Made by a program: the position numbers and the translations under genes | Assembly: GCA_964383765.1 (NCBI GenBank) | Contig: CAYLHT010000002.1 | Span: 62,774-126,773 of the forward strand | Reading direction: 5' to 3' | Source of the DNA: an uncultured Gammaproteobacteria bacterium | GTDB lineage: Bacteria > Patescibacteriota > Patescibacteriia > SBBC01 > CAIJZX01 | Length of the DNA: 64,000 nucleotides | Part shown: in pieces, positions 9,001 through 57,368 of the stretch | Position numbering within the stretch: the stretch's first letter is position 1 | Layout: the number at the start of each line of letters is the position of its first letter | The notes under the pieces: model-generated | What the model was told of the DNA's origin: nothing | What the model saw: the letters and a program-made list of their open reading frames with translations, nothing else | Database searches by the model: none

Positions 9001-12000
9001 GGGTCGGGTCGAACCTTGACCCTGTCCCGCAATAACGTCAGCGCTTCCTTCAGCTTGAGCGGAACCTTGACCGGTACAGGCACCTTGATCTATCAGAATT
9101 TCTTGGCTGATAATGGCGGCACGTACTTCCCGACAACCGGGACCTTGGCTGCTTCGCCGAATGCTCCCACCATTCGATTTGATACTGCGAACGGTACGTT
9201 ACACGTGCCCGCTCGGACGGATTACGGGACGATTGAGGCCTACAAGAATGGCATCGCGAATGTCAGTGTCGTTTTGGGAACAGCCGCGTCTCAGAGTCTG
9301 AGTTTGTCCGGCAACCTCGACATCCAGAATGCAAATGCGACAAACACCTTGACGCTGGATGGAAACACCAACACTCCGGTGACCATGACGATCACCGGCA
9401 ACGTCACGAACTCAGTCGGCACCGGGAACACGACGTTCACCATGGGCGCCGGAACATGGACTGTGTCCGGCAACTTCGACCTGACGAATATTGATTCCTT
9501 CAGCAATAACAGCGGCACACTCGCGTTGAATGGCTCCTCAGCGAAGGCCCTAACCTCAAATGGCCAAACGGTCTTTAACCTGACCATCTCAGGGGCGGGA
9601 GCGACGACGCTCTCAGACGCCGCGATTGCGGCCGGGGACGTGATCCTGAATAGCACGGTGAGCGCCGGTTCCTTGACGATGAACGGCGCTGGCAAGAACC
9701 TGACGGGTGGTAGCGCGACCCTCGCGAACCTTACCATTTCGAATGGGTCCGGTACCATCACGTTGACTGGATCTGATCTGACCGTTAGTACCGTCTTGGC
9801 GATCAGCGCGAATGCCAATCTCACCTTAGCTTCCGGCCGAGTTTTGACCTTGTCTCGTAACAATGCCAGTGCTTCCTTTACGTTGCCAACGAATGCCACG
9901 CTGACTGGTCCGGGGACACTGGTGTACCAAAACTTCACCGCTGACAACGGCGGCACGTATTTCCCGACGACGGGGACTTTGGCTTCTAATCCCATCATCC
10001 GGTTTGATACGTTGAATGGTAACCTCCACGTCCCAGCCCGTACGGACTATGGCTCGATCGAGGCGTATGGTGACGCCGGAATCAGCGCCGCTCGGACCGT
10101 TACTCTGGGTACGGCCTCATCACAAACTATTACGACCAGTGGCTACCTCGACGTGATCGCCAACAGCAACACTGGCGGCCGGAACGTCACCCTGAACGGC
10201 AGTACCAATGATCCAACCTTGAACGTGGGTGGAGACTTTGCGTTCACCGGGACTGGAAGTACAAGTGAAGCCGTAACCGCGCCGGATGCAAGCGCGACCT
10301 GGACAGTGACCGGAAATTTCGACCTGACGAACGGCACGTGGACGGCTGGTGCTGAAACGCTGAAAATGAATGGAACGGCCAACTTGAAAGCCGCCGGTCA
10401 AACCATCAAGAATGTCACGATTGACGGAACGAATAGCACGGTCACGGTCACCGGATCAGACCTGACGGTCTCAGGAACGCTGACCATCGGCGGCGATGCG
10501 GCGGCGAATACCGACGTGCTCTCGATTGGCTCAGGTCGCCAAGTTCTGTCCGGCACGGCCGGGGCGGTGACGCTGACGGATGCAACCGATACCATTAGTG
10601 GATCTGGGACCCTGAACGTTGAGAATAGTAACCTTAGCGATCAGGGGACCTTGAGTGCCAATGTCACCTATACGATAGTTTCGAGTGACATCAACGCCAC
10701 CGCTCGCACGTATGGTGCGAATCTGACGTTTGATAATACGAATGGGGGAGGCTCAGTCTTTCTCAGCACTGGGACATTCGCGGTCACTGGGAACATGTCC
10801 TATGTTTGTAGCTTCAACTGTGACGCCGTCTTCCTGGACGGAGGAGATTTTAACCCCTTTGTGACGATTGGCGGATCCTTTAGTGTGACAGACCCAGGTA
10901 ACGCATCAAGCATGAGCATGGGCAACCAGACCTGGACAGTGAGTGGTAGCTTCAATTTGACCGGTCTGGGTAGTCTAAGCGCGACGGGCACGCTGCTTAT
11001 GAATGGAACCGGGACGCTGACCTCTAATAGTCTGTCTCTCAACAATGTTACTCTTGATACGTCGGGCGGAGGGACGATTACACTCGCGAACGCGGCTCAG
11101 AGTATTGCCGGTAACCTAGTGCTCACATCTGGCGGGACACTTACCGATGCCGGAACCTCGACCGAGGTCGACATGACGGGAACCAATAAAACAATTACCG
11201 GCGCCGGTAAAACGCTGCGTAACCTGACCATCGCCGGCACGATTACGTTACAAACGACTGACCTGACCGTCAGTACCCTATTGACCGTCAACACTTCGAA
11301 ATCACTGACGATCAACAGCAGCCGAACGTTAACCCTGTCAGGCAATAGCGGCACCACCCTATCACTCTCCGGGACGATCAATGGCCCTGGAACTCTGACC
11401 TACCAAAATAGCGCCACCGCCTTCCCAGCCGGAGGGGCGCTCGCCAGTATTCTGATTGCTCGTTTCGACCTGGTGAATGTCTCATCCGGCGGAAGCATGG
11501 TGATTCCGCAACGGGCGGACTATGGCGCGGTCGAAGCCTACAATAATTCTTCAAACAACAAGACCCTCAAGACCAATTCCAACTCGACATACACCTTGAC
11601 CGGCTCAACCGCCAATCTGTACATCTATGCCGATGGCACAGGCAATACCACCTTCGATGCGACGGGCGCGACCACGGTCAATTCGCCGATGACGATTGGC
11701 GGTAACCTTGATTTCCGCGGAACGGGGAGTGGCAGTGAAGCGATTACTTCAGGTACTGGCACCTGGACCGTCTCGGGCAGTGTCGACTTCTCAGCGGCCG
11801 GAGGCGGCAGCGGCACCTACACCGCGACGAGTGGTAATACACTGGTTATGAATGGTACCTCAAAAACGCTGACGACGAATGCGAACAGCCTCGACAACGT
11901 AACATTCTCGGGTAGCACGACCACGACCTTGGCTGACAGCGTGACAGCCACCGGCAACGTCGTCTTGAATAACACCATCTCAGCCGGATCGACAACCATG

Positions 12001-18094: not shown

Positions 18095-19552
18095 ATGCGC
18101 CGACTCGAAAGCATCTTGACGCATCGCTGGTTGCTCAAACCAGCCGTAACTGGCGGAGTGGTCGCCGCAATTTTTTTGTTGAATGTCCACGGGGCTGACG
18201 CGACTGGAGCCAGTTTGAAAATTTCTCCGCTGACCGGAACCTATGAAGTCGGGAGTACGGTCGATGTTTCGTTTTTAGTAGACACCGGCGGCGACGCGAT
18301 CAATGCTGTCCAAGCTGATATTCAATTTCCGGCCGATAAACTCCAAGTGGTCAACCCGGTGGCCAGTACCTCGTTCATTTCGATCTGGGTGACGACGCCG
18401 ACTTATTCGAATACCGACGGGACCATTCACTTCCAAGGCGGTTTACCCAACCCCGGAATCAAGACCGGCGGTGGCGTCATTAGTACAGTTACATTTCGGG
18501 TCAAAACTCCGGGGCAGGCTATCATTAAGTTTGCGCCCACCTCGCAGGTCTTACGCAACGACGGTCAGGGGACCAATATTCTGACCAGCACCGGTACGGC
18601 CGAGTATACGCTCAAGACGCCGCCACCAGCCGGGCCGGTGGTCTCGAGTCCAACCCATCCGGATGGTAACCAGTGGTACAGCAATCCGGACATTCAGTTT
18701 ACCTGGGAAGCGATCGATGGAGCGGTAGGCTATAGTTATAGCTTTGATCAAGTAGCAAAATCGACACCAGATGAGAGCATTGATACGGCCCAGTCAGCCA
18801 CCAGCGTGAAAGCTACTGGCGACGGCGTCTGGTATTTCCATGTTCGCGCTCGAACGACCAGTTGGGGCGGGACCACAACCTATCCCGTGCAGATTGATAC
18901 CACGCCGCCAGCCGCCTTCACGCCGAAACTGGACAGTGAAACGATTGTCCCGGACGATTCAACCACCTTACGTTTTTTGACTTCAGATGCCGCCTCCGGA
19001 ATTGATCATTACGAGGTCAGACAGGTGACGGTTGATGCTGGGCCCGATATCAATACCTTGTTCGTCGAAGCCAGTAGTCCGTACGTCGTCAAACCCGTCG
19101 CGGCCGGTAAGTATGAACTTCAAGTCCGAGCCTTTGATCGGGCCGGCAATTCGACGGATGGGACCGTCCGTTTGTCCGTCGTGGCGGGAGGTTTGCCATT
19201 CTTTGCGCGCGTCCCACTCTTGAAGAATCCGGCCATTGCCAACGCCGCCATGTTGGGGTTGCTGATCGCGGTGGTCCTAATGCTCGGATATTTAGTCGTC
19301 CGGCGTCTCCGTCTGCGCACGACGGTCCAGCGTGACGTGGCGGCCCTCGAACGGGATGCCGAGAAAAAAGCGGCTGCCCTCCAACGCGAGTTGGATGCCT
19401 TGCGGCAAGCCCAGCAAATGATTCAACCGGCCGTCGGCGCTCCCGCCCCATCGAGTGGAACCATGACGACGACGCCGTCCGCCCCGGTGCCCCCAACTGT
19501 GCCACCGTCCGCTCCAGTCGTCCCACCCCCACCCCCAGTGCCATCGCTATGA
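18095..19552 (+). CDS. Membrane-anchored cohesin-like domain protein 2 (485 aa): signal peptide, cohesin-like domain, two Fn3-like domains, TM, coiled-coil and Pro-rich tail.
   Basis: Start chosen at ATG 18095 (MRRLESILTHRW...signal) with AAGGTGAG upstream, because the tracked ORF start at 17936 overlaps the previous gene. Cohesin-like region SLKISPLTGTYEVGSTVDVSFLVDTGGDAINAVQADIQFPADKLQVVNPV...VISTVTFRVKTPGQAIIKF. TM LGLLIAVVLMLGYLVV. Confidence 0.7.
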   Translation: MRRLESILTHRWLLKPAVTGGVVAAIFLLNVHGADATGASLKISPLTGTYEVGSTVDVSFLVDTGGDAINAVQADIQFPADKLQVVNPVASTSFISIWVTTPTYSNTDGTIHFQGGLPNPGIKTGGGVISTVTFRVKTPGQAIIKFAPTSQVLRNDGQGTNILTSTGTAEYTLKTPPPAGPVVSSPTHPDGNQWYSNPDIQFTWEAIDGAVGYSYSFDQVAKSTPDESIDTAQSATSVKATGDGVWYFHVRARTTSWGGTTTYPVQIDTTPPAAFTPKLDSETIVPDDSTTLRFLTSDAASGIDHYEVRQVTVDAGPDINTLFVEASSPYVVKPVAAGKYELQVRAFDRAGNSTDGTVRLSVVAGGLPFFARVPLLKNPAIANAAMLGLLIAVVLMLGYLVVRRLRLRTTVQRDVAALERDAEKKAAALQRELDALRQAQQMIQPAVGAPAPSSGTMTTTPSAPVPPTVPPSAPVVPPPPPVPSL

Positions 19553-38400: not shown

Positions 38401-38797
38401 GGTTGTCCACAGTTTTTGAGAAGTGAGTGTCGGAAAAGATTGTCGAATGAACGCCGTTGAGGCGCATTTGCGATCAAAATGGCCGTTTTGGCTCATCTTG
38501 ACCACCACAAGATCTAGTAGTATACTGCTTGTGAGATCCACTACATCTAGTAGTTGAACCACCCGCGCCAGTCTAGAACATCACAGGCTGGCCGGCGAAG
38601 ACCAAAAGGCGAGAACATTCAACAATTCAACGGCCTTCAACCGTCGTCCCGTCAGGGCCGGCGGGTCCTGTCGAGGCGAGGGAGGCTTGTTTTACTGAGA
38701 TTTTGTGATGGATTGATGATGGGCCTATGCCCTCAGCTACGTCTAACTCTCCACCCATTCAAGCTATGCTATACTGTTCAGCCCGCGAGCGCCGATC

Positions 38798-38936
38798 ATG
38801 ATCCCGTTAGAGGTTCGGCTTGAAATCGATGTCTCGACAACGCCTCAAGCCATGCCCGGAGGATAAGTACGGTGTTCAGTCATGCCGGCGGGGTACGCGC
38901 AAGCTTTGATCATCAGTCTGAACCTCTAACGGGATG
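38798..38936. repeat. Inverted-repeat element family A, copy 1 (~139 nt): ATCCCGTTAGAGGTTC ... GAACCTCTAACGGGAT.
   Basis: 16-bp terminal inverted repeats seen directly. The 3' arm ends ...CGGGATGAAG, supplying the nrdR start codon. Confidence 0.6.
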
Positions 38937-39407
38937 AAGTGTCCATCTTGTCATCATGCCGAAACTAGCGTCACGGACTCGCGCGTGACCGATGAAGGCT
39001 TGGCCATTCGCCGTCGCCGCGAATGCGATCGTTGCGGTTACCGTTTTTCGACGGTTGAGGAGGTTGAAATCCTCAACTTGACGGTTATCAAGCGCGACGG
39101 CCGGCGCGAACCCTACCATCGCGAGAAATTGGAGTCCGGGTTGCACAAGGCCATGGAAAAACGACCGATCACTGCTCAAGCTTTCAAGAAGTTGGTCGGT
39201 CAAATCGAACGCGATATCCAAGTTCGTGGTCGGACCGAGATCACCTCGCAACAAATTGGCGAGATTATCATGAAACGGCTGCAACGCGTCGATCAAGTCG
39301 CCTACATTCGCTTCGCCTCAGTCTATCGCCAGTTCCAAGACGTCCAATCCTTCCAACGCGAGCTCAGCCGAATGGCCAAAGGCCGCTCCAGCAAGTCGAA
39401 AACCTAA
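38934..39407 (+). CDS. nrdR: Transcriptional repressor NrdR.
   Basis: [18 protein letters not shown]...[10 protein letters not shown] zinc ribbon plus ATP-cone. It directly precedes nrdJ. Confidence 0.9.
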
Positions 39408-39438
39408 CCTCTTCTTCATTCACTCATCTTCCGGTCCC

Positions 39439-42400
39439 ATGCCCGAGACGACGACTACCTCTGAACGCTTGCGCCAAAGCGCGGCGATTGTTGATCAACC
39501 GGTTGCAGTAGTTCCGAAGCGTCGCGGACCTGGCATGAAAATCCAGCGAGTGTTCACCATGGCCGGGCAAGATCCGCTCGAGCAGCTCCAGTATGAGAAC
39601 CGCTCGTCGGTCATCAAGAATCCGGATGGAACGGTGGTGAAAGAGATTAAAGAGGTGGAAGTGCCGGTCACCTGGAGCCAGGTTGCAACCGACATTTTAG
39701 CGCAGAAGTACTTCCGCAAGGCCGGTGTGCCGCAAACCCATCCTGACGGCCGGCCGATTCTCGGGACCGATGGTCGGCAAGTACTTGGTTCAGAACGCAG
39801 CGCTAAACAAGTTATCCGACGCTTAGCCGGCACGTGGCGCTGGTGGGGGCAAGAGCATGGCTACTTCTTCTCGCCTGATGATGCGCAAGCCTATCAAGAT
39901 GAAATGGAGCACATGCTCATTCGCCAAATGGGCGCTCCGAACTCGCCGCAGTGGTTCAACACGGGCTTGCAGTGGGCCTACAACATCACCGGTAGTCCGC
40001 AAGGCCACTTTTTCGTTGACCCGCAAACTGGCGTCTTGAAAGCTTCCACCGACGCCTACACGCACCCGCAACCGCACGCCTGCTTCATCCAGAAAATTAA
40101 CGATGACTTGGTGAATGAGGGTGGAATTTTTGACTTGGTCACTCGCGAGGCGCGCTTGTTCAAATTCGGATCCGGCACCGGCTCGAATTTTTCAAATTTG
40201 CGCGGCCGCGGTGAAAAACTGTCGGGCGGCGGCGGGAGTTCCGGCTTAATGTCCTTCCTGCGAATTTTTGATCGCAGCGCTGGCGCGATTCAATCCGGCG
40301 GGACGACGCGTCGAGCGGCAAAAATGGTGGTGGTCGATGTTGATCATCCGGACGTCGAAGAATTTATTGATTGGAAAGTTCAGGAAGAACAGAAAGTCGC
40401 GGACCTGGTCGCCGGCAGCAAAATCAATTCGGTTGAACTCAACCGAATTATGGAAACGGCCGTAACGGAGAATACCATCGACTACCACAAAAATGTTCGA
40501 CTCGGTCAAACGGTTCGACATGCACTGCAAAGACACGTGCCGCTCAACTACATCATGCGGGCATTAGCCTTGGTTGAGCAGGGTCATGATCAGCTCGATT
40601 TCCCGAGCTTCACTACGCACTTTGAAGGGGAAGCCTACCAAACGGTCTCCGGTCAAAACTCAAATAATACTGTTCGCGTCACCAATGCCTATATGGATTC
40701 CGTTGAACGCGATCAGCCGTGGAATCTGCTGTGGCGCACCACTCGTGATGTGGCCAAAACCATTCCGGCCCGACGGGTCTGGGAAGAAATCGCGTACGCG
40801 GCTTGGGCCTGCGCAGATCCGGGCTTGCAATTTGACACCACGATCAACGAATGGCATACCTGTCCCGAGGACGGCCGGATCAATGGTTCGAACCCGTGTT
40901 CGGAGTATATGTTCTTGGACGATACGGCTTGCAACCTAGCCTCGATTAATTTAGCGCACTTCTATAATGCTGACACCGGGACGTTCAACGTCGAAGCCTA
41001 CAAGCATGCCACCCGGCTGTGGACGATCACCTTGGAAATTTCGGTGTTGATGGCCCAGTTCCCCGGAAAAGAAATTGCGCGGCTGTCCTACATTTTCCGA
41101 ACGCTTGGCCTTGGATACGCCAACCTCGGCACGATTTTGATGATGATGGGCGTACCGTACGACTCGCCCCAAGCTTTAGCGATTGCCGGTAGCTTGACCG
41201 CCATCATGTGTGGCGAATCCTACGCCGCCTCGGCGGAAATGGCCTCACACCTCGGGGCGTTCCCCGGGTACGATCGCAATAAAGAACACATGCTGCGGGT
41301 GATTCGCAATCATCGTCGCGCGGCCTACAACGCCCCGGCGAGTGAGTATGAGGGCCTGACCATTCTGCCGATGGGGATTGATCCGAAATCGGCGCCGGAG
41401 TATCTGGTCAAGGCCGGTCGCGACGCCTGGGACAAAGCCGTCCAGTGGGGGAATGAATACGGTTTCCGCAATGCCCAAGTCACGGTCATCGCTCCGACGG
41501 GCACGATCGGGTTACTGATGGACTGCGACACGACGGGTGTTGAACCGGACTTCGCGATTGTGAAATTCAAAAAACTGGCCGGCGGCGGTTACTTCAAAAT
41601 TGTGAACTCGTCTGTCCCGAAAGCGTTGAAGCGCTTAGGCTATGCCGATCAGCAGATCAAAGAAATTGAGCAATACTGCAAAGGCTCGGGCAGCTTGATT
41701 GGCGCGCCGCATGTGAATCATGAGACGTTGAAAGCTAAAGGCTTAACCGGTGAAGACCTAGCCAAGATCGAATTAGCCCTCGACGGTGCGTTCGATATTC
41801 GTTTCGTCTTCAACCGGGCCACCCTCGGTGACGATATGCTGGTGCGGATGGGGCTAGAAAAGCACATGGAGAACCCGGCCCTGAACGTTCTGGAAGCACT
41901 TGGATTCACTAAAGATCAGATTACGTTAGCGAATGAATACGTCGTCGGCACGATGACGATCGAAGGCGCGCCGCACCTGAAAGAAGAACACTACCCGATC
42001 TTTGATTGCGCCAACACGTGCGGCGTCAAAGGTAAGCGCTACATTGCCTATCCGGCGCACGTCAAAATGCTGGCGGCGACCCAACCATTCATCTCCGGCT
42101 CGATCTCAAAAACCATCAACATGCCGTCCTCGGCCACGATTGAAGAAGTCAAACAGGTGTACTGGGATTCATGGAAAATGATGCTCAAGGCTGTGGCCCT
42201 GTACCGAGATGGGTCAAAGTTGTCACAGCCACTCAACAGCGTCTCCGAAGATGATGAGATCGCGGCCTTGGGCGCGGCTGATGATGACGTGACCGAGGTC
42301 ACACCTAAGGTTGTGAACGATGCCGCGGCGATTCGTGCGGTCAAACAAAAACTTCCGCCGAAGCGCGTCGGCTGGACACAGGAAGCGATTGTCGGCGGCC

Positions 42401-42945
42401 ACAAAGTCTTCATCCGCACCGGCGAATATAACGACGGTCGCTTGGGCGAAGTCTTTATCGATATGTACAAAGACGGAGCCGCCTACCGCTCGCTGATCAA
42501 CTGCTTCGCGATTCTGGTCTCAAAGAGTTTACAGTACGGCATGCCGCTGGAAGAACTGGTTGACACGTTCACCTTCACGCGTTTTGATCCGGCCGGCCCA
42601 GTCATTGGTCATCCCAACATCAAGATGGCGACGTCAATTCTGGACTACATTTTCCGATTGCTCGGCTACGAGTACTTGAACCGCGACGACCTCGTTCAGG
42701 TCAAACCAAACACATCGGAACAACCTGTCCAAGCCCAACTTCCAGGCACTGCGGTGATTGAAAAACCGAAAAACGTAGCCGCCACGGCCATCTCCATGTC
42801 CCCGGCGCCGGACAACTCTTTGGCTGTCGCCAAGGCTCAAGGCTTTACCGGCGACACCTGTGGCAATTGCGGTTCGATGAAAATGAAGCGCAATGGGTCG
42901 TGCATGTTGTGCATTGAGTGCGGGACGACCACGGGGTGCTCGTGA
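39439..42945 (+). CDS. nrdJ: Class II (adenosylcobalamin-dependent) ribonucleoside-diphosphate reductase NrdJ (1168 aa).
   Basis: Active-site region [21 protein letters not shown]. Length and order match long monomeric NrdJ. C-terminal Cys-rich zinc ribbon [22 protein letters not shown]. Confidence 0.9.
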
Positions 42946-43040
42946 AGAAGGTTAGAGGTAACAGGTTGTAGGTTTTAGGTCGGATGGTATACTGAACCTC
43001 AACCCTTTCACCTATAACCTTTAACCTAAATCCTATTCCT

Positions 43041-43412
43041 ATGCCCGATCCAAAACCATCCGCCGCCGATAAAATCAAGGCTGAAGCCAAGAAAGCCGGC
43101 GCCGAAGTCAAACAAGAATTGAATAAAATTCCCTCGACTTCCGACCAGAATATGCTGGCGGCCTTGTCGTATGTGTGGTGGTTATCGATTGTCTTGTTGC
43201 TGATCAAACGCAACGACGAGTACGTTCATTTCCACGCTAAGCAAGCCGTGATTCTGACCTTCTTGACCATTTTCTGGTGGATCCCAATCCTCGGACAGCT
43301 GTTGTTCGTCCTCGCCATTATCGGGATGATCGTCGGCTTCATTCAAGCCTGGCAGGGGAAACGGTATCAGCTGCCCGTGGTGTACGGCTGGAGTCAGAAG
43401 ATACATTTCTAA
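43041..43412 (+). CDS. Small membrane protein, DUF4870-like (123 aa).
   Basis: Two TM helices around an HFHAKQAV motif. Preceded by a TATACT -10 at about 42987. Confidence 0.5.
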   Translation: MPDPKPSAADKIKAEAKKAGAEVKQELNKIPSTSDQNMLAALSYVWWLSIVLLLIKRNDEYVHFHAKQAVILTFLTIFWWIPILGQLLFVLAIIGMIVGFIQAWQGKRYQLPVVYGWSQKIHF

Positions 43413-43425
43413 TTTGTCATTTCGA

Positions 43426-43500
43426 CGAGCCTGCGAGGAGAAATCTGCGCGGCAGAATTCAGCAACATAGATTTCTCACCCGCCGCGGGTTCGAAATGAC
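43426..43500. repeat. Nested inverted-repeat element family B, copy 1 (75 nt).
   Basis: GTCATTTCGA...GGAGAAATCT...AGATTTCTC...TCGAAATGAC: outer 10-bp and inner 9-bp stems. Sits between the 43041 gene stop and the 43509 gene start. Confidence 0.55.
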
Positions 43501-43508
43501 AGAAGTCT

Positions 43509-44081
43509 ATGCGTCGCGCGCCAACCAAACTTCGTCCCGCTGATCGCGGCCTAACCCACGCCTACATCGGCGATGGCAAGGGTAAAACCACGGCCGCGGT
43601 CGGTACGGCGGTGCGGGCGGCTGGCTACGGTTGGAAAGTTTTGTATTTGCAATTCATGAAAGAACCGAAGTGGCCAAGCGGGGAGCGGGAGAGTCTGAGA
43701 AAACTTGGTATCGACGTTGATGTTCTCGGACAAGGCTGGTATAAAATTTTGAACGATAAGAAATCTGAACGCGAGCATAAAGAAGCAGCTTTGGGCGCAC
43801 TGAAAACCTTACGCGAAAAAATATTTTCCGGACAGTATCAACTCGTGGTAGCTGACGAACTGGGTTCAGCAGTGGAGGAGAAAATTTTGGATCGTAAACC
43901 CGTCGAGAAAATGCTCAAGGATCGACAGTCAAATGACCGCGCGAAGATAGTTCATCTGATTTGGACTGGCCACAAAAAAATCGGGTGGATGTTGAAGTAC
44001 GCGGATTTAGTGACGGAGATGAAGATGGTGAAACATCCGTATTACAAAGGGATTATTGCCACCCGAGGGTTAGATTACTGA
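43509..44081 (+). CDS. Cob(I)alamin/corrinoid adenosyltransferase (CobA/CobO/BtuR family).
   Basis: P-loop-like signature HAYIGDGKGKTTAAVGTAVRAAGYGWKVLYLQFMK. Size ~190 aa. Confidence 0.7.
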   Translation: MRRAPTKLRPADRGLTHAYIGDGKGKTTAAVGTAVRAAGYGWKVLYLQFMKEPKWPSGERESLRKLGIDVDVLGQGWYKILNDKKSEREHKEAALGALKTLREKIFSGQYQLVVADELGSAVEEKILDRKPVEKMLKDRQSNDRAKIVHLIWTGHKKIGWMLKYADLVTEMKMVKHPYYKGIIATRGLDY

Positions 44082-44902
44082 GCTGGCGCCGGTGGCGGAA
44101 CTGAAATCGATGTCTTGGCCTGGTCGGCCTGAAGTTTTTTGTGGATCGGCCAATACAGCAGAAGCATAATTCCCAAAATAATTGCGGTCCAGCTCGTTTT
44201 ACTGAGTGAGCCGATCGTCAGAACCATCAAGACGTAGAGAATTTTATGGACCCGTGTCGAAGTCATGATAATTTCCCAAAGAATCCAAACCGCAATCGCT
44301 ACATCGACGCCTGCTAGAATACTACCGAACGCACCGAGCGGCTTGGCCTTGTCAACCAAACCTTGTGCAGTTGCCAGTAATACGAGCAATGTCGCGAGGA
44401 CATACACTGACACAAAGAAAATATTAATGCCCCACAACCACTTGGTGTGATGGTCGGTTAATGCCACTCGGCGGCGATGGCGGACGCTTTCAGTTTCAAA
44501 ATGGGAAGCCGGTGACCAATACAGGAAGCGACCTTTCCAGGCGTACTGAATCAGACCAGCATATAGGATACATTCAAACAAAAATCCGAAGAGAGTATCA
44601 GTTGTCCAAAATGGTTTCCCATCAATTCGTGGTGAAAGAACGTTCAGGAAAATATCAACAATCGGAAATGCGACGGCATAGATTTTCCAGCCACGATCAC
44701 TCAGCCACCGGCGTCGGAACGCGATCAAGACTAACACGACATAGGAAGGAATTGAGACGAACACATTGGTCCAATCACTCCAATTGAGGTCTGTGTATGA
44801 AGCTGGGTTAAGGACATCGATCAAATACAAAACCGAAAAAATAATCCACGGCCAAGAGATTTTTTTGAACCAGCGGGTCGAGGGCAGCTGAGTATTCTCC
44901 AT
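44075..44902 (-). CDS. Hypothetical polytopic membrane protein (~276 aa).
   Basis: Start set at MENTQLPSTRWFKK. The first 64 codons of the tracked ORF run into a GC-rich hairpin repeat and lack coding character. About seven TM helices. Confidence 0.5.
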   Translation of the reverse strand: MENTQLPSTRWFKKISWPWIIFSVLYLIDVLNPASYTDLNWSDWTNVFVSIPSYVVLVLIAFRRRWLSDRGWKIYAVAFPIVDIFLNVLSPRIDGKPFWTTDTLFGFLFECILYAGLIQYAWKGRFLYWSPASHFETESVRHRRRVALTDHHTKWLWGINIFFVSVYVLATLLVLLATAQGLVDKAKPLGAFGSILAGVDVAIAVWILWEIIMTSTRVHKILYVLMVLTIGSLSKTSWTAIILGIMLLLYWPIHKKLQADQAKTSISVPPPAPAQ

Positions 44903-45012
44903 ACACTCAGTATACCATGGGTTCGTTGGAGCGACGTTGACGACCTCAATCGGGTCACGTACACTATCCACAAGGTAACCCGGCGCAATTCCGGGAGGGT
45001 CCCGCCACCGTG

Positions 45013-45086
45013 ACCTCACCCTAGCCCTCTCCTCAGGAGAGGAGAGGGGAGGAACTCGGACACCGTCTCCGCCTCGTCCGCGGAGT
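45013..45086. repeat. GC-rich hairpin repeat family C, copy 1.
   Basis: CCTCACCCTAGCCCTCTCCTC-AGGA-GAGGAGAGGG...GAACTCGG plus a second hairpin CTCCGC-CTCGTCC-GCGGAG. Homologous to 50700-50745 (CCTCACCTAACCTCTCCTCTGCAAGGAGAGGAACTGCGGG). Confidence 0.5.
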
Positions 45087-45174
45087 AAAGACAAGACCTT
45101 CGTGGAAAGGCTGGCATTCTCAGAATGCCTGCTGTTCTACGACGGCAGGGGATTTATTCATTAGCTTCACTCTT

Positions 45175-45588
45175 ATGAAGCTCCGCAAAATCCTGCTGCC
45201 CGCCCGCGCCAAGCGCCTGTGGCGGTTGGGCGGACCCGTCGTCCTGAGCCTGGTCGTGCTCGGCGCCGGTTGCAGCCTAATGCAAACTATTAACGTCAAC
45301 GGATCGGCCGGGAATACCAACACCGCAGTCAACGCCAGCGCCAACGCGAACATCAGCGCGTCAATTACCTACAGTGGACAAGCCGGCAAAAATGCTCTAG
45401 AGTTACTCACCGCCAGTCATAAGGTCGACACGTCCGCACAGGGCTTTGTCAACGCCATTGATAGCATCAAGCCGGGCGACCACCAGTACTGGGCCTTCTA
45501 CATCAACGGTAAATTATCCGATGTCGGTGCGAAAGACTACCAAACGAAAACCACAGACGCGATCGAGTGGAAACTCGAAAGCTTCTAG
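45175..45588 (+). CDS. Secreted or lipoprotein-like DUF4430-like protein (transcobalamin-like B12-binding fold candidate).
   Basis: Signal/lipobox-like VVLGAGCS. C-terminus GFVNAIDSIKPGDHQYWAFYINGKLSDVGAKDYQTKTTDAIEWKLESF matches the DUF4430 pattern (WxYxVNG...GA..Y.l.dGD.i.w). Confidence 0.55.
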   Translation: MKLRKILLPARAKRLWRLGGPVVLSLVVLGAGCSLMQTINVNGSAGNTNTAVNASANANISASITYSGQAGKNALELLTASHKVDTSAQGFVNAIDSIKPGDHQYWAFYINGKLSDVGAKDYQTKTTDAIEWKLESF

Positions 45589-45790
45589 GGCTGGAAAAAC
45601 GGGCGCCGCGCGCAGAGCGCGCGGCGCCCACAAGCCAATCCGTCGCTCAGTCCGGCTAACGGTTCAACGCGGATCACGGGCTGTGCCGATTGCACAAGCT
45701 CTCAGCAGCTTAGTGCCGGCAGTGCACCACCACGAAACCGTGACCGCCGAAGCCGTTCATCAACTCCCGACGTCGGTCGGATGGACGCCG

Positions 45791-46258
45791 ATGGTGGAGA
45801 ATCCACCCCGACCAACAGTCCAATTGAGCCAACCGCGGGCTTGGCAAATTTCTTGGATTGGGGCCGCGGTCGCTGTGGCTAGTCTGATGGTGATTTCCGT
45901 GGCGGTCGCCGGATGGTACCAGTCACCGCAGTCAACGACCCAAGGACACATTTTGGGTGTTTCAGCTACGCAACCACTGCAGGTCACCGTCACCGTCTCT
46001 GCGCCATTCTCACACGCTAGCGCCACGACTATTCTGTCGACGGGCACGTTGACCGAAGCACTGGCGCGAGCCGCCTCGGCTCTCAACTCATCACTCGGGT
46101 ACACCAGTCGCGGTTCGTCGATCTACCTAACGAGTTTTCTTGAGACTTCGAATAGTCCAGCTGGGCATTGGGGGATTGCCGTCAACGGGGCACCGGTGAC
46201 CGACTTGAGTCTAGTCACCCTGAATCAAGGTGACCAGGTGACGGCTACTTGGCAATGA
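45791..46258 (+). CDS. Second DUF4430-like protein with N-terminal TM anchor.
   Basis: Start chosen at MVENPPRP... because the upstream part of the tracked ORF overlaps the previous gene. TM WIGAAVAVASLMVISVAVAGW. C-terminus GYTSRGSSIYLTSF...GHWGIAVNGAPVTD...GDQVTATWQ. Confidence 0.5.
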   Translation: MVENPPRPTVQLSQPRAWQISWIGAAVAVASLMVISVAVAGWYQSPQSTTQGHILGVSATQPLQVTVTVSAPFSHASATTILSTGTLTEALARAASALNSSLGYTSRGSSIYLTSFLETSNSPAGHWGIAVNGAPVTDLSLVTLNQGDQVTATWQ

Positions 46259-46433
46259 TCCCGTTAGAGACTGTTCCAGCTGGTGGTCGCCAACTCAATG
46301 ACCAAACGAGTCCATTTACAAATTCACCTGTGTTTTCAGCCAACTACTCATCAGTCGCAACCTACGGTGGTCGTGAGTCATGCCCATGTTGTATGTTCAG
46401 CTTCTATTCATTCGAGCAATCTCTAACGGGATG
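46256..46433. repeat. Inverted-repeat element family A, copy 2 (~178 nt): ATCCCGTTAGAGAC ... ATCTCTAACGGGAT.
   Basis: Same terminal repeats as copy 1. Internal shared 9-mer AGTCATGCC. The 5' end overlaps the stop of the 45791 gene (TGATCCCG). The 3' arm ends CGGGATGAAA, supplying the start of the 46431 gene. Confidence 0.6.
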
Positions 46434-46982
46434 AAAATAATTTCTGCCCTGACCTGGTACGCCCTGGGACTGATTGTGATTGGGGCTGGATTACGTGTAG
46501 TTCGGCATTTTGGTTACCTGCCCTTGCCCCCAAACGTGGCACCGGTCAGCGCGCTGGCGATGTTCAGCGCTATTGGTTTGCCGCGGCGATATGCCTTTGT
46601 GGTACCGCTGGGATTAATGCTGGTAGCCGACATGGTCATCGGTTTTGATCTGCTACCTATCACCCTGAGCATTTACGCTTGCTTTGCCGTTAGTTACTTG
46701 ATTGGCCGTTGGATCAATCGACAGTTCAGCGTCACTCGTTTGGTGATCGGAACGTTGACTGGTTCAATTATTTTTTTTCTGGTCACCAACGCCGCGGTTT
46801 GGGCGTTCAGTTCGATTTATGTGCAGACTGGGACTGGACTACTGCAGGCATATATTGCCGGCCTGCCGTTTTTCCGCAACACGGTGCTCGGCGACCTCGG
46901 CTACACCGGCCTGTTCTTTGGCCTGTACCAGTTAGCCGTGGTATACTCTCGTCGACGGGCACCCGTCGCCGTGCATGACTGA
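46431..46982 (+). CDS. Small polytopic membrane protein (184 aa), ECF-transporter S-component-like (CbrT-like candidate).
   Basis: About six TM helices, size typical of ECF S components. Adjacent to DUF4430 genes. The start ATG lies inside the 3' arm of inverted-repeat element A2. Family call is contextual. Confidence 0.4.
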   Translation: MKIISALTWYALGLIVIGAGLRVVRHFGYLPLPPNVAPVSALAMFSAIGLPRRYAFVVPLGLMLVADMVIGFDLLPITLSIYACFAVSYLIGRWINRQFSVTRLVIGTLTGSIIFFLVTNAAVWAFSSIYVQTGTGLLQAYIAGLPFFRNTVLGDLGYTGLFFGLYQLAVVYSRRRAPVAVHD

Positions 46983-57103: not shown

Positions 57104-57151
57104 GTCTCGTTCCGCTGGGCGGAACTCGACTCCTCCGTGCCGCTTCGCTCC

Positions 57152-57229
57152 TGGCGGACCCAAGGGGATTTGAACCCCTGATCTTCTCCGTGACAGGGAG
57201 ACGTGTTAACCGGGCTACACCATGGGTCC
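57152..57229 (-). tRNA. tRNA-Asp (anticodon GUC) with encoded CCA.
   Basis: Manual fold of the reverse complement: acceptor GGACCCA/TGGGTCC, D-arm GTGT...ACAC, anticodon stem TCTCC/GGAGA with loop CTGTCAC, T-arm AGGGG-TTCAAAT-CCCCT, discriminator G, CCA. Confidence 0.85.
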
Positions 57230-57368
57230 CCAGGAGCGAAGCGGATTGAAAATGTGTTTGGCGTGCCTGCCCAGCTTCACATCGAGTCTCGAGATGTGGG
57301 GCTGGGTTAACCGGGCTACACCATGGGCCCAAAAAGAAATGCCGGACCAGCGTAGCACCGAAAGGCTG

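Follow-up and report, generated by a model that had tools for sequence, protein, structure and literature searches.

The 64,000-nucleotide (nt) stretch of Patescibacteriota DNA analysed here (contig CAYLHT010000002.1, positions 62,774 to 126,773; hereafter the window) carries two copies of a short inverted-repeat sequence, one directly before nrdR and one directly before a gene coding for a DUF6580 membrane protein, and both copies are recent insertions of a small mobile DNA element that encodes no protein. The insertions are lineage-specific, one having occurred at the nrdR start codon and the other at the ATGA overlap in front of the DUF6580 gene. With terminal inverted repeats, a target-site duplication when compared to the empty site, a small size without transposase, and dispersed copies that fall into subfamilies, the element has the properties of a MITE (a miniature transposable element with inverted repeats). 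It is likely that the copies here and elsewhere are MITE-like, non-autonomous transposons that rebuild the start codon into which they insert, with the downstream gene being expressed, as far as can be deduced, by the coupling of translation termination to re-initiation.

Evidence for insertion comes from empty sites in relatives. Judged by its NrdR protein, the window belongs to Candidatus Kerfeldbacteria (Patescibacteria). Four Kerfeldbacteria loci (L120, L121, L123 and L124), the NrdR proteins of which are 82-85% identical to that of the window, share with it the gene order nrdR, class II ribonucleotide reductase (RNR), MamF-like protein, BtuR, DUF4430 protein, an unnamed open reading frame (ORF), DUF6580 protein, polysaccharide deacetylase and HtrA. 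In all four, the element is absent from the nrdR site as well as from the DUF6580 site. The empty nrdR sites read gcctATGAAGTG, ctcATGAAATG, gacgATGAAGTG and tctATGAAATG in L120, L121, L123 and L124, respectively, following the pattern ATGAAG/ATGAAA, and the empty DUF6580 sites are 4-nt stop/start overlaps (gctATGAtcc, gctATGAttc, gaATGAaac and atcATGAaac in the four relatives). At both loci the window thus consists of the empty site of the relatives plus the element plus a second TGA, which indicates transposition with target-site duplication, and the ORFs flanking copy 2 align with those of the relatives right up to the junction. Since A is the last base of the element and TG the beginning of the duplicated target, insertion into NTGAA retains the old start codon at the left end and creates a new ATGAA at the right end, leaving the coding sequence intact. 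The corresponding features are located in the window as follows:

38498..38526, plus strand: promoter-like TTGACC-17-TATACT, about 270 nt upstream of copy 1 and outside the element, a consensus match only.
38798..38866, plus strand: short ORF of 22 codons running from the old start codon into copy 1, with its TAA at 38864-38866, 70 nt before the nrdR ATG; non-bridging.
38799..38801, plus strand: left target-site duplication TGA of copy 1, which together with A38798 makes the old start codon ATG 38798-38800.
38802..38934, plus strand: element copy 1, 133 nt, TCCCGTTAGAG...CTCTAACGGGA; the nrdR start codon takes its A from the final base, A38934.
38868..38886, plus strand: subterminal block TACGGTGTTCAGTCATGCC of copy 1, common to copy 2.
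38934..39407, plus strand: nrdR, 157 amino acids (aa), downstream of copy 1, with Zn_ribbon_NrdR at residues 1-42 and an ATP-cone.
38935..38937, plus strand: right target-site duplication TGA of copy 1; its TG completes the rebuilt nrdR ATG 38934-38936.
46255..46434, plus strand: bridging ORF of 59 codons from the old ATG across the entire copy 2 (part of ORF 46249..46434), peptide MIPLET...EQSLTG, with an ATGA overlap at each end.
46256..46258, plus strand: left target-site duplication TGA of copy 2, doubling as the stop of the 270-aa ORF 45446-46258; old ATG at 46255-46257.
46259..46431, plus strand: element copy 2, 173 nt; the DUF6580 start codon takes its A from the final base, A46431.
46363..46384, plus strand: subterminal block TACGGTGGTCGTGAGTCATGCC of copy 2, common to copy 1.
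46431..46982, plus strand: DUF6580 membrane protein gene following copy 2, coding for 183 aa.
46432..46434, plus strand: right target-site duplication TGA of copy 2; its TG completes the new ATG 46431-46433, and it doubles as the stop of the bridging ORF.

The same comparison bears on a different reading, also raised in the initial annotation of this DNA, namely that of a conserved cis-regulatory leader or riboswitch for B12- and nucleotide-related genes. Both copies indeed precede genes of a cluster comprising the class II, B12-dependent RNR, BtuR and the DUF6580 membrane protein, and both contain a common subterminal block. However, the empty sites upstream of the same genes in four syntenic relatives rule out a conserved leader for these genes, other copies of the element precede 138 unrelated Pfam families, the interiors cannot be aligned across the family, and Rfam searches around both window copies returned nothing relevant at E <= 10, the cobalamin families included, leaving this reading with practically no probability. 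Identity with a cobalamin riboswitch or an NrdR box was rejected because of the Rfam result and the empty sites. The placement of both copies within the B12 and nucleotide-metabolism cluster is coincidental. As a separate observation, about 174 nt upstream of nrdR in L120 (positions 9743-9936, GCA_041484505.1) are bracketed by a 10-bp direct repeat, CTATGAAGTG, that takes in the nrdR ATG; the bracketed stretch holds, besides a degenerate copy of the 5' end of nrdR, an unrelated inverted repeat in its interior (CCAGCGCCACTTTGG/CCAAAGTGGCGCTGG), and represents a different insertion or duplication at the same nrdR start codon.

With respect to the structure of the two window copies, terminal inverted repeats of 13-16 bp had been described initially, in agreement with perfect arms of 16 nt in copy 1 and 13 nt in copy 2, which extend to 23 nt with 87% and to 19 nt with 89% complementarity, respectively; the original lengths of 139 and 178 nt have to be corrected to 135 and 175 nt on the same arms (ATCCC...GGGAT). 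Common to both copies are TCCCGTTAGAG on the left and CTCTAACGGGA on the right. The right arm reads CTCTAACGGGATGAA in either copy, and its terminal A together with the flanking TG forms the start codon. A direct repeat TGA, overlooked in the initial annotation, brackets both copies (left ATGA/TCCC..., right ...GGGA/TGAA, with the slash marking the end of the element). The sequence ATCCCGTTAGAG has four exact matches in the window, forming two inverted pairs at 38801/38924 and 46258/46421; shuffled versions of the window contain 0.12 matches on average, and none of 100 shuffles reached five. A fifth, intragenic site resembles ATCCCGTTAGAG with one mismatch, and arm-like sites at 19346 and 30156 were dismissed as chance matches, as they lie within long ORFs and have no partner arm. 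The internal 9-mer noted before, AGTCATGCC, recurs in both copies 36-37 nt 5' of the right arm as part of the longer common block TACGGTGkTC(GTG)AGTCATGCC, which is situated in the gene-proximal half of both copies and the score of which was reached by 4 of 1000 shuffles.

That the 3' arm supplies the start codon of the downstream gene, as proposed initially, holds for both genes. The nrdR ATG is genuine in that the Pfam zinc ribbon begins at residue 1 of NrdR, and the DUF6580 ATG in that the 183-aa protein aligns over residues 1-183 with the L123 orthologue at 75% identity. The overlap of the left junction of copy 2 with the stop codon of the upstream gene could likewise be verified: this TGA terminates the 270-aa ORF, the C-terminus of which (...TATWQ*) aligns with that of its orthologue (...TVTWE*). 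An exact-protein look-up returned no record identical to the NrdR or the DUF6580 protein of the window, and likewise none for P0001 (99% identity). In the predicted RNA folds the arms pair with each other and take in the A and U of the start codon, in line with the earlier suggestion that arm pairing would involve this codon. The predicted folding energies are -55.3 kcal/mol for copy 1 (z = -2.6) and -51.9 kcal/mol for copy 2 (z = -2.1), and 2 and 4 of 200 shuffles, respectively, fold equally well.

Beyond the window, TCCCGTTAGAG...CTCTAACGGGA pairs with exact arms were searched for in one genome per species with 101-161 nt between the arms (sample 1) and in metagenomes with a shorter gap of 61-121 nt (sample 2). 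This search, which the initial annotation had recommended, yielded at least 119 loci in genomes and at least 120 in metagenomes, compared to a handful expected by chance, most of them at start codons; no copy was found in the viral contigs scanned. Among the matches listed, nearly all hosts are Patescibacteria of the Candidate Phyla Radiation (CPR), including Saccharibacteria, many Parcubacteria/Paceibacterota lineages, Kerfeldbacteria, Levybacteria and others, and a few are Omnitrophota, including the complete genome of Ca. Velamenicoccus archaeovorus. At least four loci each were found in DATDWZ01 and MHLS01, three each in JAZDOX01 and JAUSES01, and two in the 64-kb window. Near-identical subfamily members within single genomes (e.g., L007/L012/L029) indicate bursts of copying. 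Element lengths range from 49 to 385 nt, with a mode at 120-123 nt, a smaller cluster at 94-103 nt and a tail that reaches about 180 nt; a preference for multiples of three, apparent in sample 1 where the search pattern excluded lower lengths, was not significant in sample 2 (43:46:30) and was dismissed.

The interiors are AT-rich and mostly cannot be aligned between subfamilies. In the arms, 11 bp are identical in all copies, which is partly by construction since the search demanded exact arms, and positions 12 and 13 show covariation, double changes numbering 13 and 22 in 46 sequences. In the major subfamily a module of the form yACGG-stem-loop-stem-CC-T-RY directly abuts the arm at one end, and the letters of this subterminal stem differ among copies while complementarity is kept (GGAAACG/CGTTTCC, GGTTGCGAC/GTCGCAACC, GGATGCGC/GCGCATCC). 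No transposase gene is present, the sole ORFs being variable bridging upstream ORFs (uORFs) the peptides of which are not conserved. At the gathering score, Rfam families other than tRNAs, one tmRNA and one chance match to a lncRNA were detected neither in the window nor in 17 representative loci, and a literature search found nothing relevant on the arm sequence or on MITEs or start codons of CPR, Patescibacteria or Saccharibacteria.

Some sequences related to the arms fall outside this pattern. Mini-palindromes with the variant arms TCCCGTTAGAAG/CTTCTAACGGGA occur in the loop of the subterminal hairpin in part of the elements (L005 4712-4765, L006 3309-3349, L014 7230-7270 and L030 436-475), and a 102-nt variant-arm copy without obvious duplication lies in an intergenic region of L124 (19620-19721). 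Possibly, the arm motif serves as a recurrent binding site for a protein. Two GC-rich matches with exact arms (L008 5271-5412 and L112 2698-2843), one of which stems from a metagenome-assembled genome of the Elusimicrobiaceae, show neither a flanking duplication nor a start codon; as their interiors are unlike those of the rest of the family, they may represent chance matches or coding sequence.

A copy was counted as residing on a start codon if its terminal A and the flanking TG open an ORF of at least 60 codons or one running off the contig. By this definition, 89 of 120 copies from genomes and 101 of 120 from metagenomes lie on a start codon, or 193 of 241 (80%) after combination and deduplication. 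The usual junction is ...ATGAA/TCCC...GGGA/TGAA..., but left flanks of GTGAA, TTGAA and CTGAA also occur, suggesting that the original site was an NTG start codon which the element converted to ATG; in 30 of the 193 copies the site is an ATGA stop/start overlap as in copy 2 of the window. The downstream genes (138 Pfam families among 87 proteins) are functionally unrelated and many are housekeeping genes, coding for, e.g., topoisomerase I (with the Toprim domain from residue 2), EF-G-type GTPases, Mur ligases, ribosomal protein L9, SHMT, class I and II tRNA synthetases and CTP synthase. A crude ORF map of the same loci assigns 187 ATGAA pentamers to ORF starts, 686 to stretches outside ORFs and 1949 to the inside of ORFs. 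Nevertheless, 48 of 51 copies flanked by ATGAA are located at ORF starts, and this placement is not a mere residue of purged lethal intragenic insertions. The Omnitrophota copies are an exception in that they lie away from start codons. The initial annotation had contrasted a MITE with a target preference near start codons with a plain MITE, recognisable by target-site duplications and by random positions: the duplications are present, the randomness is not, and the preference holds well outside the window, with four fifths of the copies exactly on the start codon.

The copies are oriented as well. The subterminal hairpin lies beside the gene-proximal rather than the distal arm in 59:5 copies of sample 1 and 52:6 copies of sample 2, the others being unclassifiable, and the reversed copies mostly belong to one subfamily, e.g., in the Lloydbacteria genome MHLS01. 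Orientation and placement together might point to selection after insertion and thus to an exapted regulatory hairpin, the insertions being retained since the transcribed stem controls translation or mRNA stability, be it by sequestration of the start codon, as a target of RNase III, or by sensing temperature or translation rate. This explanation, which overlaps with that of start-codon-rebuilding MITEs, could further draw on the strong predicted stem which pairs the A and U of the ATG (-55 and -52 kcal/mol), on the covariation of arm positions 12 and 13, and on the pairing maintained in the subterminal hairpin with different sequences. However, the downstream genes have no function in common, close relatives run the same operons with empty sites, and covariation of the arms is equally expected from the matching of ends by a transposase or from pairing of single-stranded DNA. 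An exaptation of this kind is therefore considered unlikely.

Among the 241 copies the flanks of which were usable, the majority have a 4-bp direct repeat, chiefly TGAA, on either side. In sample 1, in which TCCA flanks occur as well, the flanks are TGAA/TTCA in 53 copies, TGGA in 4, TAAA/TTTA in 6, TGA/TCA in 11 and TG in 7, with no repeat in 25; in sample 2, TGAA/TTCA was found in 49, TGGA/TCCA in 12 and TGA/TCA in 13. Left and right flanks vary jointly, even within one genome (TGAA/TGAA, TGGA/TGGA, TAAA/TAAA, TCAA/TCAA), and since they differ among copies yet match within each copy they must be target duplications and not ends of the element. The target consensus is T-N-N-A, mostly TGAA, and both window copies belong to the minority with 3-bp TGA repeats. 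An Omnitrophota subfamily (L009, L015, L034, L062, L098 and L073/L082) has TAAA/TTTA or TTTG duplications and internal partial repeats of the arms; its copy in L098 (183-567) measures 385 nt and has a TTTA duplication.

The joint variation of the flanks also bears on the possibility that the element moves as a single-stranded hairpin by means of a Y1/HUH enzyme, in the manner of palindrome-associated transposable elements (PATEs) derived from IS200/IS605 or of REPIN/RAYT systems, in which case the left TGAA would be the target and the right TGAA would be borne by the element. A long foldback, covariation that preserves structure, a subterminal hairpin at one end only, and insertion in a strongly preferred orientation relative to the asymmetric target (TGAA versus TTCA) would all fit such a mechanism, and PATEs and REPINs likewise occur as long hairpins in multiple copies at gene boundaries, their stem bases being conserved and their loop variable. 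But flank tetramers that change together are expected of a duplication and not of a fixed, element-borne end, and IS200/IS605 does not feature perfect terminal inverted repeats; PATEs and REPINs lack such repeats as well and do not duplicate their target on insertion. Their identity with the element is contradicted by the covarying direct-repeat flanks, the perfect terminal inverted repeats and the TGA duplicated relative to the empty sites, and movement by a Y1/HUH enzyme is accordingly regarded as very improbable.

How a gene behind such a stem might be expressed is suggested by the reading frames within the element. Read in the frame of the old ATG, the interior lacks stop codons in 20 of 69 copies of sample 1 and 20 of 76 of sample 2, as compared to 7.7-9.5% in composition-preserving shuffles and 4-17% for the five remaining frames; when the samples are pooled, a bridging ORF is present in 43 of 148 copies versus 9% expected (p = 3e-12, binomial test). 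Bridging ORFs end at -7 or +1 relative to the new ATG, either at a TAA inside the right arm (CTC TAA CGGG ATG), 4 nt before the new start codon, or at a TGA overlapping it (ATGA). Summed over both samples, the frame is open in 29 of 69 copies in which the ORF from the old ATG would end at the right-arm TAA, in 10 of 43 in which it would end at the ATGA overlap, and in only 1 of 33 in which it would be in frame with the gene. The bridging peptides resemble each other only at their arm-encoded ends (MNPVRD..., ...SYL or ...SLTG), so that it seems to be the open frame that matters and not its product. The excess of bridging ORFs suggests translational coupling. Ribosomes would still initiate at the old start codon and translate into the element, thereby melting the stem between the arms or blocking its co-transcriptional formation; they would then terminate at the right-arm TAA or at the TGA overlapping the new ATG, and re-initiate at the latter. 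Copy 2 has exactly the layout that such termination-reinitiation coupling would require, with ATGA at the old start, a 59-codon ORF across the element and ATGA at the DUF6580 start codon. Copy 1 is non-bridging, its 22-codon uORF stopping 70 nt early, implying another route of expression or poorer expression of nrdR.

Shine-Dalgarno-like motifs precede only about 17% of the starts of ORFs of at least 150 aa in the fetched CPR loci, without upstream enrichment of G, and 11 of 89 (12%) old start codons beside elements; given this rarity both at element-bearing genes and genome-wide, the idea that the hairpin bridges a Shine-Dalgarno sequence to the new start was dropped. A consensus promoter scan detected no promoter inside either window copy. 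An outward promoter giving rise to a leaderless mRNA (TTTACG-N16-TRYCTC-N7-ATG) is likewise unsupported, because its '-10' varies (TATCTC, TGTCTC, TACCTC, TGCCTC) and covaries with the other arm. Judging from the promoter-like match some 270 nt upstream, copy 1 probably lies inside the nrdR leader, and nrdR seems to have a long leader. In relatives (L121 9730-9790, L123 9770-9815 and L124 9715-9770), a TATACT -10-like box precedes the nrdR ATG by about 200 nt and has repeated CTAGATGTAGT-type palindromes, possible NrdR boxes, on its flanks. Public annotations of NrdR (P0001, P0049, P0081 and many others) often comprise only 139-146 aa, i.e. they start 11-18 codons late and lose the first zinc-ribbon CxxC. 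Attribution of these truncated calls of about 140 aa to the element was withdrawn, since element-free relatives are mis-called alike; they are probably an effect of the missing Shine-Dalgarno signal on gene callers.

Several observations speak against the interpretation of the copies as start-codon-rebuilding MITEs with coupled translation. The terminal 11-13 bp are symmetric yet the orientation is biased by about 10:1, which is not predicted for a plain cut-and-paste MITE and makes it necessary to assume an asymmetric transposition complex or selection after insertion. The length of the duplication is inconstant (mostly 4 bp, occasionally 2 bp, and 3 bp in the two copies of the window), which is unusual for a single transposase and may reflect later decay. 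Copies of the same subfamily are related by descent, and the counts are thus not fully independent. While the anatomy of terminal inverted repeats plus target-site duplications suggests mobilisation by a DDE transposase, no transposase partner was found in about 1.7 Mb of fetched loci, which contain no pair of arms 300-5000 bp apart enclosing an ORF and in which the largest pair spans 385 nt. Finally, in about 70% of the start-codon copies the uORF stops early, and coupling would therefore be at best one of the routes of expression.

When compared to known systems, the element shares with the Correia/NEMIS elements of Neisseria and the ERIC/IRU elements of enterobacteria a size of 100-180 nt, terminal inverted repeats, a short target duplication, a high copy number, the lack of a transposase, a location inside transcription units and long foldbacks in the transcript. 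However, its arm TCCCGTTAGAG is unrelated in sequence to those of Correia- and ERIC-type elements, and its hosts are CPR bacteria and Omnitrophota. Correia elements duplicate TA and occupy varied intergenic positions, and to our knowledge no Correia/NEMIS or ERIC/IRU family has been reported to lie on start codons or to rebuild them. The Rickettsia palindromic elements (RPEs) are likewise small palindromic mobile elements of reduced genomes whose persistence requires compatibility with translation. RPEs survive within genes by in-frame insertion and become part of the protein, whereas the element described here stays outside the protein, is open in only 1 of 33 copies in the in-frame phase, and rebuilds the initiation codon. 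Its arm motifs GTTAGAG and CTCTAAC resemble the core (GTTRRRY) and inverse core (RYYYAAC) of integron attC sites, the size range of which overlaps, but identity with attC was rejected: the order is reversed (GTT... at the 5' and ...AAC at the 3' end, as opposed to RYYYAAC 5' and GTTRRRY 3' in attC), and the copies are single, dispersed insertions at start codons, with duplicated flanks, and not boundaries between the cassettes of an array. In principle only, there is also a similarity to the 'byps' of Magnusiomyces mitochondria and to the gap in gene 60 of phage T4, which are inserts flanked by matching codons and persisting by a translational trick. Both are bypassed inside ORFs by ribosome hopping, while the evidence here points to translation of a bridging uORF and re-initiation, at the start codon. 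We know of no other element family that sits on start codons and rebuilds them, and the start-codon niche of this family is apparently undescribed.

As a side observation, a perfect 15-bp inverted repeat (window 57140-57244), with CCGCTTCGCTCCTGG at 57140-57154 and CCAGGAGCGAAGCGG at 57230-57244, exactly encloses the minus-strand tRNA-Asp (gtc) gene at 57152-57229; it could be a processing stem or another inserted element.

The element exemplifies a transposon able to colonise the three most sensitive bases of a gene non-destructively, hundreds of times, in front of essential genes and in some of the smallest bacterial genomes. It thereby offers a handle on translation initiation in CPR bacteria, in which there is hardly any Shine-Dalgarno signal and genes with a 12-20-bp stem on their ATG must still be expressed. 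For genome annotation it means that a true start codon may begin with the last base of a repeat without any upstream signal, resulting in mis-set starts or in spurious ORFs of about 40-60 aa across the element. In addition, the presence/absence polymorphism among close relatives provides a strain-level marker as well as a natural experiment on gene expression.

As a tentative hypothesis, about which doubt prevails, the start codon could be the actual niche of a 'translation-transparent' mobile element, where a ribosome coming from the host start codon unzips the hairpin and hands over to the rebuilt ATG, the element being either tolerated at or actively targeted to this position. If this were true, the family would constitute a previously unrecognised class of translation-dependent genomic parasites in CPR bacteria, and its members, placed ahead of essential genes such as topA, the tRNA synthetase genes and nrdR, may act as a genome-wide layer of control over translation.

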